Positions 8,977-24,788 of a DNA stretch of 64,000 nt are shown here, piece by piece. The position numbers and the translations under genes were made by a program. The notes below the pieces were generated by a model. It was given only the letters and a program-made list of their open reading frames with translations. It did not search any database and was not told the DNA's origin. The DNA is from an uncultured Bacillota bacterium (GTDB lineage: Bacteria > Sysuimicrobiota > Sysuimicrobiia > Sysuimicrobiales > Segetimicrobiaceae). Location of the stretch: assembly GCA_963804645.1 (NCBI GenBank), contig CAWDRG010000009.1:1184001-1248000 (forward strand). The letters run 5' to 3'. How positions within the stretch are numbered: position 1 is the stretch's first letter; each line of letters opens with the position of its first letter.

Positions 8977-10752
8977 TTACTCGGTCGACGACGCCGGCGG
9001 GGCGGTGAGGGGCGCGCGGCTTCCCCGATACCAATTGGTGATCGGCAGCCGGCGGTCTCTGCCGAACGCCTTTGGGGTGATCTTGATGCCCGGCGGCGCC
9101 TGGCGCCGCTTGTACTCGCTGCGGTCGACCATCGCGATCACGCGCGCCACCACGGTCGGGTCAAACCCTTCCGCGACGATCTCGTCGGCCGAGCGGTCGT
9201 CTTCGACGTACCGCTCGAGAATCGGGTCGAGCGTCTCGTACGGCGGCAGCGTGTCCTGGTCGGTCTGATGCGCGCGCAGTTCGGCGGTCGGGGCGCGCTC
9301 GATGACGCCCGCCGGGATCAGATCCCGCCCGGCCCGGGCGTTGCGCCAGCGGGCGAGATCGTACACGAGCGTCTTCGGGACGTCCTTGATCACCGCGAAC
9401 CCGCCGGCCATGTCGCCGTACAGCGTCGCGTAGCCGACGCTCATCTCGCTCTTATTGCCGGTCGTCAGCACGAGCCAGCCGAACTTGTTCGAGAGCGCCA
9501 TGAGGAGATTCCCGCGGCTCCGCGCCTGCAGGTTCTCCTCGGTGATGTCGGGCGGCCGGCCGGCGAATGCCGCGCGGAGCGCGGCCTCGTATTCCTTCAC
9601 GACCCCGCCGATCGGCAGCTCGAGCACGCGGATCCCAAGCGCCTCGGCGAGGGCCGCCGCGAACCGGCGGCTGTCCTCGGAGGTAAACTCGGACGGCATC
9701 GTGACGCCGTGGACCGCGTCGGCGCCCAGCGCGTCGACCGCGACGCACGCCACGAGCGACGAGTCGACGCCGCCGCTCAGGCCCACGACGACGCCCCGGA
9801 AGCCGTTCTTCCGGACGTAGTCCCGCGTGCCGAGCACCAGGGCGCGGTACACTTCTTCCACCTCGCCCGGGGGCGCGGGCGGCGGGACGGTCGGCAGCGC
9901 GGGGCGTTCCATCCGTCCGGCCGAGTTCGAGAGCGTGTAGACGGGCGCTCGGATCCCCTCGTCGCGCAGCGCGTCCGTGGTCCGGATCGAGTTGTACCGG
10001 CGGATGCCTCGGATCGCTTCGACGTCGAGATCGGCGACGATGAGCGCCTCTTCGAACGCCGGCCCGCGGGCGACGATGTCGCCGGTCGGGCCGACGATCA
10101 GGCTCAGCCCGTCGAAGACGAGCTCGTCCTGGCCGCCGATCAGATTGTTGTAGACGACCGCCACGGCGTAATCGCGCGCCCGCGTCTTCAGCATCTCCTC
10201 GCGGAGGCGCCACTTGCCGCGCGCGTACGGCGATCCGTTGATGTTGACGGCCACGAGCGCGCCGGCGAGCGACTGCGCCAGCAGCGGGCCGCCGGGCGCC
10301 CAGATGTCCTCGCAGATCGTGACCCCGACCGGCACGCCGTGGATCACGAACACGGGGCTGTCGGTGCCCGGCTGGAAGTACCGCTTCTCGTCGAAGACCC
10401 CGTAGTTCGGCAGGCGCATCTTGCGATACACGCCGGCGATGCGTCCCTCGTGCAGCACGGCCGCCGCGTTGTACAGGTGATCGCCGGAGTCGGCGAACCC
10501 GACGACGGCGGCCGTCGAGGTCGCGTGCGGCGCGATCTCGGCGAGGCACCGGAGGTTGTCGCGGATGAAGTCGGTCTTGATCAGCAGATCTTCGGGAGGA
10601 TAGCCGGCGATCGCGAGTTCCGGGAAGGCGACGACATCCACGCCGAGCGATTGGGCTTCCTCGAGGCGCTCGATGATCTTGCGGGTGTTGCCCTCGAAGT
10701 CCCCGACCGTGGCGTTCATCTGGGCCATCGCGACCCGGAATCGAGGCGTCAT
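8977..10752 (-). CDS. nadE: Glutamine-dependent NAD+ synthetase (nitrilase-fold glutaminase plus synthetase)
   Basis: FPEL, LPNYGVFDEKRYF, ICEDIW catalytic triad motifs; GLSGGVDS, ENLQAR, TGNKSE, PTAEL, SEYKRRQAP. Confidence 0.97.
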   Translation of the reverse strand: MTPRFRVAMAQMNATVGDFEGNTRKIIERLEEAQSLGVDVVAFPELAIAGYPPEDLLIKTDFIRDNLRCLAEIAPHATSTAAVVGFADSGDHLYNAAAVLHEGRIAGVYRKMRLPNYGVFDEKRYFQPGTDSPVFVIHGVPVGVTICEDIWAPGGPLLAQSLAGALVAVNINGSPYARGKWRLREEMLKTRARDYAVAVVYNNLIGGQDELVFDGLSLIVGPTGDIVARGPAFEEALIVADLDVEAIRGIRRYNSIRTTDALRDEGIRAPVYTLSNSAGRMERPALPTVPPPAPPGEVEEVYRALVLGTRDYVRKNGFRGVVVGLSGGVDSSLVACVAVDALGADAVHGVTMPSEFTSEDSRRFAAALAEALGIRVLELPIGGVVKEYEAALRAAFAGRPPDITEENLQARSRGNLLMALSNKFGWLVLTTGNKSEMSVGYATLYGDMAGGFAVIKDVPKTLVYDLARWRNARAGRDLIPAGVIERAPTAELRAHQTDQDTLPPYETLDPILERYVEDDRSADEIVAEGFDPTVVARVIAMVDRSEYKRRQAPPGIKITPKAFGRDRRLPITNWYRGSRAPLTAPPASSTE

Positions 10753-10793
10753 CCTCATTCCTCCTGCGGCGGGTGCGCCACCCGTCGGCCTCC

Positions 10794-12221: not shown

Positions 12222-13664
12222 TTATACGTCGTAGTACAGGAAGAACTCGTAGGGCACGGGCCGGATGTTGACCTCGTGGACTTCCTTCGTGCGCTTGTAA
12301 TCGATCCACGTGTCGAGCAGGTCGCGCGTGAACACGTCCCCCTCGAGCAGGAACTCGTGGTCGTCCTCGAGCGCCGCGAGCGAGACGTCGAGCGACCCCG
12401 GCACGCTCTTGATCTTGGCGGCCTCATCCGGCGGCAGCTCGTAGATGTTCCGGTCGAGGGGACCGAACCCCGCCTTCGTAGGATCAATCTTGCGCTTGAT
12501 CCCGTCGAGGCCGGCCATCAGCATGGCCGCGAACCCGAGGTACGGGTTGCACGTGGCGTCCGGGCACCGGAACTCCAGCCGCTTGCTGCTGGCCGCCGCG
12601 GGGCCCGAGAAGTACATCGGGATGCGGATCGCGGCGCTCCGGTTGCGCTTGCTGAACGCGATGTTCACCGGGGCCTCGTAGTGGGGGACGAGCCGGCGGT
12701 ACGAGTTCGTCGTGCACGCGCACAGGCCCAGCAGCGCGTTGACGTGGGTCAGCAGCCCGCCGACGTAGTACAGCGCCTCCTGGCTCAGTTCCGCATAGCC
12801 GCCCTCGCTGTAGAAGAGGTTCGCGCCGCCCTTCCACAGACTCTGGTGGACGTGCATGCCGGTTCCATTATCGCCGAACAGCGGCTTCGGCATGAACGTC
12901 GCGGTCAGGCCGTGGCGGCGGGCGACGTTCTTCACGATGTACTTGTAGCTCATCAGCGAGTCGGCCATTCTCGCGAGCGTGTTGTACTTGATGTCGATCT
13001 CGCACTGCCCGGCCGAGGCGACTTCGTGGTGCTGCATCTCCACCTCGATGCCCCAGGCTTCCATCTGCAGCGACATCTCGCTGCGGAGGTCGAGCAGCGT
13101 GTCGGCCGGCGCGACGGGGAAGTACCCCTCCTTCGAGCGGATCCGGTTGCCCATCCCGGGCTGGCCGGTGTTCCAGATCGCCTCGGGCGAGTCGATGCTG
13201 TACCCCATCCGCTGGGGGAGCACGTCGTACTGGACATTGCTGAACACGAAGAACTCGGCCTCGGGACCCCAGTAGCTCGTGTCCGCGATGCCCGTCGTCT
13301 TGAGGTACTCCTCGGCCTTCTGGGCAACGTGGCGCGGATCCCGCGTGTACGGCTTGCCCGTCGTCGGATCGTTGACGTTGCAGATGACCGAGAGCGTCGG
13401 CACCTCGGTGAACGGATCGGGCCGCGCGCTCGCCGGGTCCGGCATCAGGATCATGTCGCTCTCTTCGATCGCCTGGAACCCGCGGATGCTGCTGCCGTCG
13501 AAGCCGATCCCGCGCTTGAACGTCTTTTCGTCGATCTGGCTCGCGGGGATCGTCGCGTGCTGCCAGGTGCCCGGCATGTCCACGAACTTGAAGTCCACCA
13601 TCTTGATGCCGTGGTCCTTAATGTAGGCGACGACTTCCGACGCGCCCATGTCCTTGCCCGCCAT
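12222..13664 (-). CDS. glnA: Glutamine synthetase type I (GSI-beta-like)
   Basis: FDGSSI, HHEVA, ATFMPKP, NGTGMHVHQSL, NSYRRLVP, NRSAAIRIP, RLEFRCPD; NIYEL adenylylation-site Tyr. Confidence 0.98.
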   Translation of the reverse strand: MAGKDMGASEVVAYIKDHGIKMVDFKFVDMPGTWQHATIPASQIDEKTFKRGIGFDGSSIRGFQAIEESDMILMPDPASARPDPFTEVPTLSVICNVNDPTTGKPYTRDPRHVAQKAEEYLKTTGIADTSYWGPEAEFFVFSNVQYDVLPQRMGYSIDSPEAIWNTGQPGMGNRIRSKEGYFPVAPADTLLDLRSEMSLQMEAWGIEVEMQHHEVASAGQCEIDIKYNTLARMADSLMSYKYIVKNVARRHGLTATFMPKPLFGDNGTGMHVHQSLWKGGANLFYSEGGYAELSQEALYYVGGLLTHVNALLGLCACTTNSYRRLVPHYEAPVNIAFSKRNRSAAIRIPMYFSGPAAASSKRLEFRCPDATCNPYLGFAAMLMAGLDGIKRKIDPTKAGFGPLDRNIYELPPDEAAKIKSVPGSLDVSLAALEDDHEFLLEGDVFTRDLLDTWIDYKRTKEVHEVNIRPVPYEFFLYYDV

Positions 13665-13706
13665 GGCCTGCACCTCCGTGTCCCCACGGGACAGAGTCGG
13701 TTCTCG

Positions 13707-13746
13707 AAAACAAAAACGCCTCCCGAGCGAATGCTCGAAAGGCGTC
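13707..13746 (-). terminator. Intrinsic terminator inside the glnA 5' leader (attenuator)
   Basis: Minus strand GACGCCTTTCGAGC-ATTC-GCTCGGGAGGCGTT (14 bp including 3 G-U pairs) followed by TTTGTTTT, between the promoter and the glnA start. Confidence 0.8.
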
Positions 13747-13771
13747 AGGGCCTCCGGTACGTCACGGTACC
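13739..13771 (-). promoter_or_regulatory. Dual-hexaloop hairpin element, putative ANTAR antitermination target
   Basis: GGTAC[CGTGAC]GTACC-G-GAGGC[CCTGAC]GCCTT; the second hairpin overlaps the terminator 5' arm. Confidence 0.7.
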
Positions 13772-13778
13772 TGGCCCG

Positions 13779-13807
13779 GTTATACCATGTGCCCGACGGC
13801 CCGTCAA
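13779..13807 (-). promoter_or_regulatory. sigma70-type promoter of glnA
   Basis: Minus strand TTGACG-17 nt-TATAAC with an extended -10 TG. Confidence 0.8.
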
Positions 13808-18946: not shown

Positions 18947-20689
18947 CTAGCGCTCGCGGCCGGCGCGCCGGCGCGCGGGGCGCTTGGCGCGCGGCTTCGA
19001 CGCGGCGGTCGACCGCTTGGCCGCCGCTTTCTTGGTCCGAGCCGGTTTCTTGGCTTTGGCCGCGGCGCGCTTCGGCCGCGGAGGGGGCGGCGCGGCCTGC
19101 GGGCCGCCGACCGGCACCAACTCGAACTGCGCGGTCGGCGCCGGCACCCCGGCGCCCTTCACCGTGCCCGGCAGAATCCTAAATACCGGACAGAGGAAGA
19201 CCTCGATCCGGCCGCCGCCCGGCGCAAACAGCGCCGGCAGGTGGAGCGATCGAAGCCCGACGAGCGTCAGGGGGCCGGTCGGCGGCGTGCTGAGCCACCG
19301 GCGCGCGGTCTCGTAGGCCGGCGTCCCGGGGACGGCGACCGCGGTGATGCGGGTCTTCCCGGCCGCGTCGCCGAACGCGAACAGGAACGGACGTCCGTCG
19401 ACGAACTGGCTCCGGCCCCCGTAGAACTGGCCGGTCATGTACACGTAGGCGGTTTCGACCACCGGCGCGTGCCGGAACGTCATCGTGCCGCCCGTGAACG
19501 CGACGCGCGTGGACGGCTGGAAGTCCGGAAACGGCATCGGGTGGACGGCGTCGATCTGCGCCCACTCCGCCTCGCCGGGCGCGTCGATCGAGACCGGCGG
19601 GAACGTCAGGCCGCGCTCGGTCACGATGGTGCGCACGGGGTGGATCTCGAGCAGATGCGGGATCACGGGGTGTCCGACGGACGCGTGGTCGGGCAGCATC
19701 CGCAGCAGGCCCGTGACCGTGACGCGCTGCTGCGTCCCAATCATCTCGTCGAGCAGCCGCGCGTACTGGCTGTGCCCGGTGCCGCCGGCCTCGAGCGCCC
19801 CCGGCCGCACCGCGTTCTGGATGACGCAGGCGATCGTGTCGCGCGTCGCGCCGTCGGCCGGGGCGGGCGACAGCCCGAACGCCACGCCCAACCCGTACTC
19901 GCCTTCGCCGGTGCGCGCCGTCACGTACCCTTCCGCGGTCACGTCGATGCCCGGCGAGAACCGGAGGTACGCGAGCGGCTCGGCGCCCGAGACGACGAAG
20001 TCCTGCTGGTCGCCCGAGCTCGGGAGGATGCTCACCGCGCTCAGCACCCGCAGGAGGTCCGCGGGCGTCCGCACCTCGATCCGGCCCGCCGGGCGCGCCG
20101 GCGTGTGCTGGCGCATCTCGTCCGACACCAGGATCGCGCGGGCGATCTCCCGCATGGGGGTGCGCGTGTTGCGGCTCTGCCGCTGGATGCGGAGGAACGC
20201 TTCCTGCTCGTCGATCCCCTCGCGCTGCATCAGGATGCCTTTCGCGCGGTCGACCAGCTTGCGCGTCTCCAGGGTCTCCTTGAGGTTGCCGACCTCCTGC
20301 TGGAGCGCGCGCAGCTCCGCGAAGCGCGCCATCGCCACCTCGATCACGGGGACCAGCTCGGCCTCGCGCACCGGCTTGACGAGGTAGGCCAGGACCCCGG
20401 CCTCTTGGGCCCGCTGGACGAGGTCGCGCTCGCTCCACGCCGTCAGGAGGATGATCGGCCGCGGCTGCCGCGTCATGATCGTTGAGGCGGCCGAGATCCC
20501 GTCGAGCCCCGGCATCTTGATGTCGAGGAAGATCAGCTCCGGGTTGAGCTTGGCGGCGAGCGCCACCGCTTCCTCACCGTCGCTCGCTTCCCCGACCACC
20601 GTGTAGTCGTGCTCCTCCAGCATCGTGCGGAGGCCCATGCGGATGACCGGCTCGTCGTCGGCGATGAGGATGCGCATCGCGTCGGTCAT
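18947..20689 (-). CDS. REC-ANTAR response regulator (PdtaR/EutV-like) with a long C-terminal extension of unknown function
   Basis: IADDEP, LDIKMPG, YLVKP receiver motifs; ANTAR LETRKLVDRAKGILMQREGIDEQEAFLRIQRQSRNTRTPMREIA; ~380 extra aa. Confidence 0.92.
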   Translation of the reverse strand: MTDAMRILIADDEPVIRMGLRTMLEEHDYTVVGEASDGEEAVALAAKLNPELIFLDIKMPGLDGISAASTIMTRQPRPIILLTAWSERDLVQRAQEAGVLAYLVKPVREAELVPVIEVAMARFAELRALQQEVGNLKETLETRKLVDRAKGILMQREGIDEQEAFLRIQRQSRNTRTPMREIARAILVSDEMRQHTPARPAGRIEVRTPADLLRVLSAVSILPSSGDQQDFVVSGAEPLAYLRFSPGIDVTAEGYVTARTGEGEYGLGVAFGLSPAPADGATRDTIACVIQNAVRPGALEAGGTGHSQYARLLDEMIGTQQRVTVTGLLRMLPDHASVGHPVIPHLLEIHPVRTIVTERGLTFPPVSIDAPGEAEWAQIDAVHPMPFPDFQPSTRVAFTGGTMTFRHAPVVETAYVYMTGQFYGGRSQFVDGRPFLFAFGDAAGKTRITAVAVPGTPAYETARRWLSTPPTGPLTLVGLRSLHLPALFAPGGGRIEVFLCPVFRILPGTVKGAGVPAPTAQFELVPVGGPQAAPPPPRPKRAAAKAKKPARTKKAAAKRSTAASKPRAKRPARRRAGRER

Positions 20690-20690
20690 C

Positions 20691-22380
20691 CTACGATCCC
20701 TCCGGGCGCGGCATCGTGATCACGGCGTGCGTGCCCCCCGGGCCGCCGAACGTAATTTGGCCCTTGAGGTCGCTGCCGACGAGCGTGTGCACGATCTGCA
20801 GGCCGAGGCCGGCGGACCGGTCCGGCACGAATCCCTGCGGCAGGCCCACGCCGTCGTCCTGGACCTCGACGCGCAGCGTATCGCGCCCCGCGGCAAGCGT
20901 GATCATCACGGTCCCGCCGCTGCGGCCCTCGAACGCGTGCTCCAGCGCGTTCTGCAGCAGCTCGTTCACGACGAGCGCAAGCGAGGTGGCCTGCTGGCTC
21001 GGCAGGCTCAGGTCGTCGCCGCTCACCTTGATCTCGAGCGTGAGGCCCGGCCGGGCCATCGTCTGCCGCACCGTCTGCGCGACGCGCTCGAGCATCTCGT
21101 GGACGGCGACCTGCCGCAGGCCGTCGGCGGCGAGAATCTCGTGGACGCCCGCGATGCTCAGGATCCGGTTGATCGTCTCGGTGAGGACCTCGCGGCCCGA
21201 GACTTCGCGGCCGTCGCGCAGCTGCAGGCGCAGCAGCATCGCGATCATCTGGAGGTTGTTCTTCACCCGGTGGTGCATCTCGCGCACCATCGCCGACTTA
21301 ACCACCAGGCTCGCATTCTCGATCGCGAGCGCGGTTTGGTTCGCGAGCGTCTGCAGCATGCTGATCTCGGACGGCGTGAACGTGTGCCGCCGCGCGGTGT
21401 AGCAGTTGACGACGCCCAGCGTGTGGTCCCGCACGCGCAGCGGCACGGACAGGAGCGACCGCACGGGCGACGGTTCGGGCAGCTCGTTCGTGCGGAAGCG
21501 CGGATCGTCCGCGAGATCGTGGCTGACGGCCGGCTGCCCGGTCGCCGCCGCCTCCCCGGGAACGCCCTCACCGACGCGCAGCGTCCGCCGGGGCCGCGGC
21601 CCGGGGGCCTCGGGGTGGGAGGCGGCGAGCACGAGCTCCTCGCCCTCGAGCAGCATCAGCGTGCACAGCGGCGCCTGCAGCACGCGCGCGGCCATCTCCA
21701 CGAGGAGGCGGAGGATCTGCTCGAGATAGAGCGGAGACGTCAGCGTCTCGCTCGCCTCGGCGAGCGTGCGCAGCTCGAGGATCTGGCGCCGCATGCTGTC
21801 GTGGAGGCGCGCCTTCTCGAGCGTGCCGCTCGCGAGATCCGCGATGATGCTCAGCAGCTCGATCTCGTCGTCGCCCCAGGCGTGCGCGCCGGTCGTCTGG
21901 ACGTTGATCGCGCCGAGCGTCCGGCCCTCCACGGTGAGCGGGACCGCGAGCAGCGATTGGAACAGTGACTCGTGGGTCTCCGGCAGGAGCTTGAACCGCG
22001 GGTCCTGCACCGCGTTGGTGGACGCGACCGGCTCCCCGTGCTGCGCCGCCCATCCGGTCAGGCCCTCGCCGAACTTGAGGCGTGCCGCGCCGACCGCGTC
22101 GGCGGCGAGCCCCGTCGTCGCTTTGAGGACCAGGTACTCGCGCGAGGCGTCCAGCAGATAGATCGAGCAGCTGTCGACGGGCATCACTTCCGCGGTCGTC
22201 CGGGTGATCAGGGTGAGCGTGGTGTCGAGGTCGAACGTGGCGCCGATCGCGCGGCTGATCTCCCGCAGCGCCGAGATCTCCGCGGTCTTGCGGGCGAGCT
22301 CCCGCGCCGTATCGTCGGTGTGGCTCTGCTCGGGCGTGATCGCCCCTCGGCGCGGCACTACGGCCTCCCGCGGCCTCGGA

Positions 22381-22394
<14 letters not shown>
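20691..22394 (-). CDS. Soluble GAF-GAF sensor histidine kinase, HisKA_2 class (PdtaS/EutW-like)
   Basis: Two GAF domains; REMHHRVKNNLQ H-box, NELLQNALEHAF, DDGVG, GLGLQIV; no TM segment; exact start uncertain. Confidence 0.92.
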
Positions 22395-24747
<2,353 letters not shown>

Positions 24748-24788
24748 CACGGAGCCTCCTGGACGACGAGTATGGCGCGGCGTTCTTC

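Follow-up and report, generated by a model that had tools for sequence, protein, structure and literature searches.

How does an uncultured soil bacterium of the phylum Sysuimicrobiota control its glutamine synthetase gene? The question is raised by the leader of glnA in the window, the 64,000-nucleotide stretch of DNA analysed here. A first-pass annotation had described this leader as a pair of ANTAR-type hairpins that overlap a terminator and have C instead of A at position 1 of both loops. The antiterminator EutV requires A1 and G4 of its hexaloop targets, and replacing A1 by U in either loop reduces both induction and binding, as reported in PMC3369931. The consensus published there is SYAC[AAHGRH]GUDB..RRGY[AAHGDV]GCYY, and in the accompanying Figure S2, C1 occurs in scattered low-ranking matches, and G1 in Listeria eut leaders. 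According to the description of the 3.8 Å structure of EutV with RNA (PMC8934654), G4 makes the sole base-specific contact, A1 has no contact with the protein, and the essential residue Met172 plugs the loop. The authors of the structure proposed that A1 has a role in folding (PMC8934654). Actinobacterial ANTAR targets are reported to hold A1 and G4 at above 50% (PMC8164766) and to act largely on translation (PMC8164766, PMC12591593). ANTAR control of glutamine synthetase has been widely predicted (Ramesh 2012; PMC3369936), and the ANTAR protein NitR was reported to antiterminate the glnA-gltAB leader of Clostridium saccharobutylicum under nitrogen limitation (PMC6316151).

Leader upstream of glnA

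All features of the window described here are located on the minus strand. The regulated gene glnA (12222..13664) encodes a type I glutamine synthetase with Pfam matches to PF03951 (Gln-synt_N) and PF00120 (Gln-synt_C). Its likely start is the ATG at 13664, which is kept in relatives. The gene is preceded by a ribosome-binding site GGAGG (13673..13677) and, ahead of it, by a small GC hairpin (~13680-13693), both of which are also found in leaders of the family. The promoter consists of the -35 hexamer TTGACG (13802..13807), of which TTGAC is found at the same place in relatives, and the extended -10 element TGG-TATAAC (13779..13787), of which TGN-TA is kept. The TATAAC (13784-13779) is separated from the -35 hexamer by 17 nucleotides. 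Transcription is predicted to start at approximately 13772, 1-2 nucleotides ahead of the first hairpin. A promoter scanner called no site at the leader, because the -10 element lacks its final T.

The first hairpin, P1 (GGUAC[CGUGAC]GUACC, 13756..13771), corresponds to the recruitment hairpin in the EutV model. The second, P2 (GAGGC[CCUGAC]GCCUU, 13739..13754, with C1 at 13749 and G4 at 13746), corresponds to the antiterminator hairpin. The two hexaloops are arranged in tandem, with a linker of 1-3 nucleotides between the hairpins and 17 nucleotides from loop to loop. Both have six bases, G at position 4 and a C-G closing pair, and A is absent from position 1 of both, where C is found instead. 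The stems agree with the SYAC/GUDB and RRGY/GCYY parts of the published consensus. P2 overlaps an intrinsic terminator (13707..13746), which has a 14-bp stem (13746-13715) and a U tract. The terminator tail, UUUGUUUU, reaches 13707, and the stem contains three G-U pairs in its upper region and two at its base. The last three bases of the P2 loop, from G4 onwards, open the 5' arm of the terminator. Because this arm begins within the P2 loop, P2 and the terminator are mutually exclusive, and the pairing of the terminator constrains positions 5-6 of the P2 loop. The promoter, the two hairpins, the terminator with its U tract, and the mutual exclusion are all present as the first-pass annotation had described them.

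Folding of the leader and genome-wide searches

In folding calculations, P1 combined with the terminator reaches -30.3 kcal/mol, compared with -20.3 kcal/mol for P1, P2, and a residual hairpin, and RNA that ends at P2 folds as P1 and P2. The z-score of the leader, -5.0, is due to the terminator (z -6.2). By themselves, the small hairpins are ordinary relative to chance (z -0.9 and -1.2). Two terminator-like sites were observed in 10 kb, compared with 3.6 expected, and generic pairs of C..G.. hairpins occur 1941 times in this genome, which has a GC content of 69%. Since hairpin pairs alone are common in the genome, the case for the element rests on its conservation. A pattern combining the published stems with A1 in both loops matched no site in the genome, whereas the same pattern with position 1 left free matched twelve, including the glnA leader. 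The idea that searches with the canonical motif would miss the element is thus correct for the A1 pattern. The paired CnUGAC hairpins have a single occurrence genome-wide, the glnA leader itself. Rfam covariance models, including those of glutamine riboswitches, gave no match to the leader, the best hit being to the terminator alone with 22.9 bits relative to a cut-off of 45. Eight related leaders did not match Rfam models either. Metatranscriptome contigs had shares of 0.06-0.17, and one identical contig corresponds to positions 13455-13747; the contigs show neither ends nor strand.

Sensor kinase and ANTAR regulator

A kinase-regulator pair is encoded approximately 5 kb upstream of glnA. The regulator (18947..20689) is a REC-ANTAR protein (PF00072 and PF03861) that aligns with Rv1626 and EutV and is likely to be an antiterminator. 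The comparison of sequences agrees with its earlier designation as the likely binder of the leader. The sensor kinase (20691..22394), located one nucleotide before the regulator, has the domain order GAF-GAF-HisKA_2-HATPase and belongs to the EutW/PdtaS type. A kinase adjoins the ANTAR gene in 29 of 30 loci. The genes surrounding this region include a membrane H+-pyrophosphatase (22381-24750) upstream of the kinase and a glutamine-dependent NAD synthetase (8977-10758) downstream of glnA.

The residues of EutV that contact G4 (R142, K149, E160, and Y164) correspond to R, K, E, and F in the regulator from the window, and the change of Y164 to F is tolerated by NasR according to PMC7496416. At the position of the loop-plugging Met172 of EutV, the protein has Arg173 (codon 20171..20173), as seen in alignments to 6wsh, 1s8n, 4akk, and 1qo0, all of which have Met. 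This Met-to-Arg change, which matches the change in the RNA, goes beyond the observations of the first-pass annotation. Arg occupies position 172 in all 30 best orthologues from the class. Twenty further class proteins comprise 17 with Arg, one with Met, and two with Gln, the Met and Gln proteins being paralogues. The genome itself encodes a second REC-ANTAR protein with its own kinase (L133, G000:C4:20025-20648), which has Gln at position 172. No target leader was found for the clade of this protein (L133, L378, L379, and L296, all with Gln172 and their own kinase).

The regulator contains an extra C-terminal domain of 330 residues (18947-20105) without a match in Pfam. The domain is kept in the family proteins that were read and absent from two checked proteins of other families. 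Its predicted model has a pLDDT of 39 and no fold match at E 0.001, with weak matches to OB-folds of the anticodon-binding type at E ~5e-3. Unnamed look-alikes of the domain are present in the Atlas.

The closest solved relative of the regulator is Rv1626 (PdtaR; E 9e-56), with which it shares the ANTAR fold residues. Rv1626, NasR, and AmiR have Met at the loop-plug position and targets with A1 and G4, whereas the protein from the window has Arg. NmPAL from Nakamurella multipartita likewise lacks Met at this position (Ser, in a weak alignment) and binds a hexaloop. As described in PMC10966536, NmPAL is light-gated, selection yielded AGCAGC as its loop, and a natural target has yet to be proven. 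The system as a whole resembles that of EutV/EutW and the eut leaders of Enterococcus faecalis in its REC-ANTAR protein and HisKA_2 kinase, two hexaloops with C-G closing pairs and G4, consensus stems, and P2 overlapping an intrinsic terminator. It differs in having C (P2) or U/C (P1) at loop position 1, a free position 2, Arg instead of Met172, and the extra C-terminal domain, and many targets in the class lack a recognisable P1. The linker of 1-3 nucleotides is also shorter than those of the eut leaders of E. faecalis, which measure 5-12 nucleotides; a 3-nucleotide linker cut the induction of eutP, and some published matches have 3-4 nucleotides (PMC3369931). When compared by description, the NitR system has in common the ANTAR protein and the glutamine synthetase leader, whereas here the cognate kinase is adjacent and the loop has C1.

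A search of mainly open literature found no paper on C1 targets of ANTAR proteins and none that assigns target specificity to residue 172, although supplementary tables of earlier surveys could list C1 matches. A term search of the text of bioRxiv 660928 returned nothing. ANTAR control of glutamine synthetase is already known, and the pairing of C1 with Arg172 appears to be new.

Conservation of the leader in the class

The promoter, P2, and terminator were found again before glnA in five families of the class. In the tree of ANTAR proteins, the protein of a Geohabitans record is placed inside one of these families' class relatives, within a single family, and PMC11604079 lists this genus under Sysuimicrobiota (CSP1-3), to which the class thus appears to belong. 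A glnA match is present in 76 of 94 class genomes, and the upstream DNA of 73 loci was read, among which are second paralogues, genes inside operons, and the ends of short contigs. A pattern of P2 plus terminator, with G4 built in, matched 50 of the 73. One locus with chance matches and two preceding an ANTAR gene were dropped, which left 47 leaders. Position 1 of the P2 loop is C in 45 of them, U in one, and G in one, whereas the bases at positions 2 and 3 are free to vary, and 23 of the 47 loops have A at position 2. In P2, the replacement of A1 extends from the window to the class. In the 19 leaders with a GUAC-stem P1, after the removal of one spurious match, position 1 of P1 is U in twelve, C in six, and A in one, and P1 hairpins of other families are weak or of the A1 type. 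U3 is present in only 8 of the 47 P2 loops and 4 of the 19 P1 loops, and CnUGAC is not the common conserved element that it had been taken for. The motif of the class is instead RGGC[CnnGRY]GCCY fused to a terminator.

An alignment of 16 leaders from the family, calculated without a constraint on G4, has G4 invariant in both loops (16/16). P1 is 98.8% paired with a stem that hardly varies, and the 4-bp core of P2 is paired in all 16. Together, the P1 and P2 stems are 93.8% paired with few changes, and 29 of 500 shuffles show covariation as high. The terminator contains five pairs with compensatory changes. The comparison of related leaders hence bore out the hairpins, G4, and C1 of P2, did not bear out CnUGAC, and gave weak stem covariation. 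The hexaloops, the stems, the overlap with the terminator, and the recurrence in the class are in keeping with the earlier designation of the leader as a probable ANTAR-type dual hairpin.

Distribution of the module and of ANTAR proteins

Within the class, the module RGGC[CnnGRY]GCCY with a terminator is found ahead of ANTAR genes as well as of glnA and amtB, and amtB is often preceded by two tandem hairpin-terminator units. No gene for AmtB or another ammonium transporter was found in the genome of the window, which is 96.8% complete, and therefore the test with amtB rests on relatives. The single-hairpin and tandem units suggest that antitermination in the class may be independent of P1. Loci L123, L124, L134, L137, L142, and L369 were grouped with single-hairpin or tandem hairpin-terminator units before amtB or glnA. 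In the operons of L139, L140, L141, and L143, the module begins about 7 nucleotides after the -10 element, with no space for P1. Two more C1 hairpin-terminator modules are located in the genome of the window (G000:C2:189983, plus strand, and G000:C11:82463, minus strand), preceding genes for a PLP-dependent decarboxylase and a methylglyoxal synthase-like protein. The nearest relative (G070) retains the two modules, and the four more distant homologues that were read lack them.

ANTAR proteins are present in 81 of the 94 class genomes. They were not found in genus g18 (0/8, where glnA was also without a match), in genome G005, and in genus g22 (0/4, with genomes 83-95% complete). In all four glnA leaders of genus g22 (L074, L077, L080, and L082), the P2 hexaloop is replaced by a loop of 12 nucleotides and the terminator is intact. 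The loss of the hexaloop from leaders of a genus in which ANTAR was not found supports control by an ANTAR attenuator, and counts as one evolutionary event. The glnA leaders of genus g22 also carry a different conserved upstream sequence, which has no match in Rfam. At locus L119 (G037:C121), a C1 leader lies ahead of a REC-ANTAR gene broken by a frameshift and a stop codon.

Residue 172 and loop position 1

We assembled by hand 67 pairs of protein and leader, some of which are linked at the genome level only. Arg goes with C1 in 31 of 34 pairs, Met with A1 in 23 of 24, and Gln with G1 in 7 of 9. Position 172 is the best predictor of loop position 1 among 188 alignment columns. The phylogenetic tree contains one independent contrast on well-supported branches and two to three on the best tree, and the sign test (p = 1) has no power. 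Drift of genomes towards GC is unlikely to account for C1 and Arg, because A is frequent at position 2 and the two types occur side by side in one genome.

A scan of GTDB genomes that put no constraint on position 1 gave, among at least 120 matches listed, A in 69, G in 27, C in 20, and U in 4, and many of the matches with bases other than A are due to chance. As judged by eye from the matches listed, Anaerolineae and other Chloroflexota have C1 elements ahead of glnA or amtB, C1 elements are also present in Methylomirabilis, and Gaiellales-like Actinomycetota have G1 elements ahead of glnA, glnK, or an ANTAR gene. Sixteen of 18 chosen A1 genomes contain ANTAR proteins, and each of the 16 has a Met protein (19 Met, 1 Val, and 1 Gln in total). 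Among 11 C1 genomes, eight have an Arg protein, two have no ANTAR match, and one has proteins of the types M/M/T. Five of seven G1 genomes encode a Gln REC-ANTAR, one has other types, and one has Arg. Pattern searches gave 17 matches in 301 Chloroflexota genomes, two of which are clear C1 nitrogen leaders, and nothing beyond the known match and apparent chance matches in 151 Thermoleophilia genomes. Seven of the Chloroflexota matches (L319-L325), which were left out, have a hexaloop-terminator module with the loop AGUGAU or GAUGAU just after the promoter of an ACT-domain malic-enzyme-like gene, which may be another ANTAR target.

Among 121 sampled Methylomirabilota genomes, leaders that adjoin Met ANTAR genes have A1 (5/5) and those that adjoin Arg genes have C1 (4/4). 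Six of the nine residues were read after the prediction had been made, and eight other ANTAR genes that were fetched have no neighbouring element. Genomes G103 and G623 contain both the Met/A1 and the Arg/C1 sets. In these genomes, most A1 leaders are located before genes related to nitrogen or the outer membrane, and most C1 leaders before other genes. A multi-copy C1 regulon (L521, L525, L526, L529, L546, L547, and L551-L554), separate from the A1 set, precedes PAS, sigma-54-type, and receptor-like genes, as judged by eye from translations; its P1 loop often has seven nucleotides and starts with C. In genome G092 from the class of the window, the leader of a Met paralogue has A1 in P2 and C1 in P1, and the glnA leader has C1.

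A blind metagenome sample of 110 loci (83 Met, 15 Gln, 5 Arg, and 7 unassigned) showed no association of residue and base with the raw filter, in which the Met loci gave seven A, five C, ten G, and four U, mostly chance matches. The plausible intergenic elements, selected by eye, comprise five A1 and one G1 for Met, and two G1, one A1, and one C1 for Gln. None of the five Arg loci had an element. Several cases break the rule: three Arg genomes have U1 or G1, Gln proteins are found next to C1 and A1 elements, a Met protein adjoins a G1 element, the eut leaders of Listeria have G1, and one genome with M/M/T proteins only has a C1 match. Position 1 of P1 also departs from the rule. The link of Gln to G1 is the weakest of the three. 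A eut-like locus on a gut metagenome contig (L462) contains a Gln172 ANTAR gene and two G1 leaders, a pairing that is apparently of separate origin.

Proposed mechanism of glnA control

Based on the leader, the regulator, and their relatives, we propose that the leader is an ANTAR attenuator read by the REC-ANTAR protein of the window and that Arg173 selects or permits C1, a reading to which we give a probability of about 60%. The kinase (20691-22394) would phosphorylate the regulator (18947-20689), which would then bind the nascent RNA at P1 and subsequently at P2, in line with the successive model put forward in PMC8934654. By holding P2, the regulator would block the terminator and enable transcription into glnA. 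Arg173 may give preference to C as the first loop base, in the place of the A that accompanies Met. By analogy with NitR, induction presumably takes place under nitrogen shortage. For this reading, we count the consensus stems, the fold switch, the class module, the kept G4 contacts, and the pairs of Met with A1 and Arg with C1. Against it, we count the single well-supported contrast, the selection of the pairs by hand, the lack of association in the blind sample with the raw filter, the exceptions, the short linker, the weak covariation of P1 and P2, the lack of contact to A1, and the departure of P1 from the rule.

An ANTAR attenuator in which residue 172 does not read position 1 is an unlikely alternative. 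Arg172 and C1 would then have been inherited together in one subfamily, with specificity located elsewhere or position 1 merely shaping the loop. The single well-supported contrast and a tree compatible with one origin of Arg would suit such co-inheritance, as would the folding role proposed for a base that contacts nothing in EutV-RNA, the acceptance of U, C, and A in P1, and the exceptions. However, C1 is kept in 45 of 47 P2 loops in which positions 2 and 3 vary freely, none of the other columns among the 188 predicts position 1 as well, and one genome has A1 and C1 within an identical AGGC..GCCU stem, each following the adjacent paralogue.

It is quite improbable that the leader is no more than a terminator, or responds to a small ligand or to some other protein, with the ANTAR gene as an incidental neighbour. 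The small hairpins lack unusual stability, and the two extra C1 modules precede genes outside core nitrogen metabolism. Genus g22 keeps the terminator in genomes in which no ANTAR was found, and therefore some other way past it must exist there. Opposed to this are the absence of an Rfam match, the fit of the stems to the ANTAR consensus, the broken hexaloop where ANTAR is missing, and the occurrence of the same module directly before ANTAR genes. Least probable of all is the reading of the leader by the second REC-ANTAR protein (contig C4, Gln172). That protein exists with its own kinase, and one Gln protein (L448) has a C1 leader, but many of the class genomes in which the glnA leader has C1 encode just one ANTAR protein, of the Arg type, and in many of these the Arg gene is located on the glnA contig.

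Implications for nitrogen regulons and ANTAR recognition

The natural pairs of C1 and Arg172 bear on a puzzle of ANTAR recognition, namely that the mutation of A1 impairs EutV, yet the only structure of a complex contains no contact to A1. We speculate, more tentatively than for the leader itself, that position 172 is a one-residue code in which Met specifies A, Arg specifies C, and Gln mostly specifies G. Should the code fail, the leader would still represent a nitrogen attenuator conserved in a phylum without cultured members. Should it hold, it could provide orthogonal protein-RNA pairs for gene control, and targets could be assigned to ANTAR paralogues by sequence. Paralogous ANTAR systems of one cell would each govern a regulon of their own, with Methylomirabilota as an example. 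The nitrogen regulons of Sysuimicrobiota and Anaerolineae, some of which are of the single-hairpin kind, would be invisible to searches based on A1, and missed regulons of soil and subsurface bacteria could be recovered.
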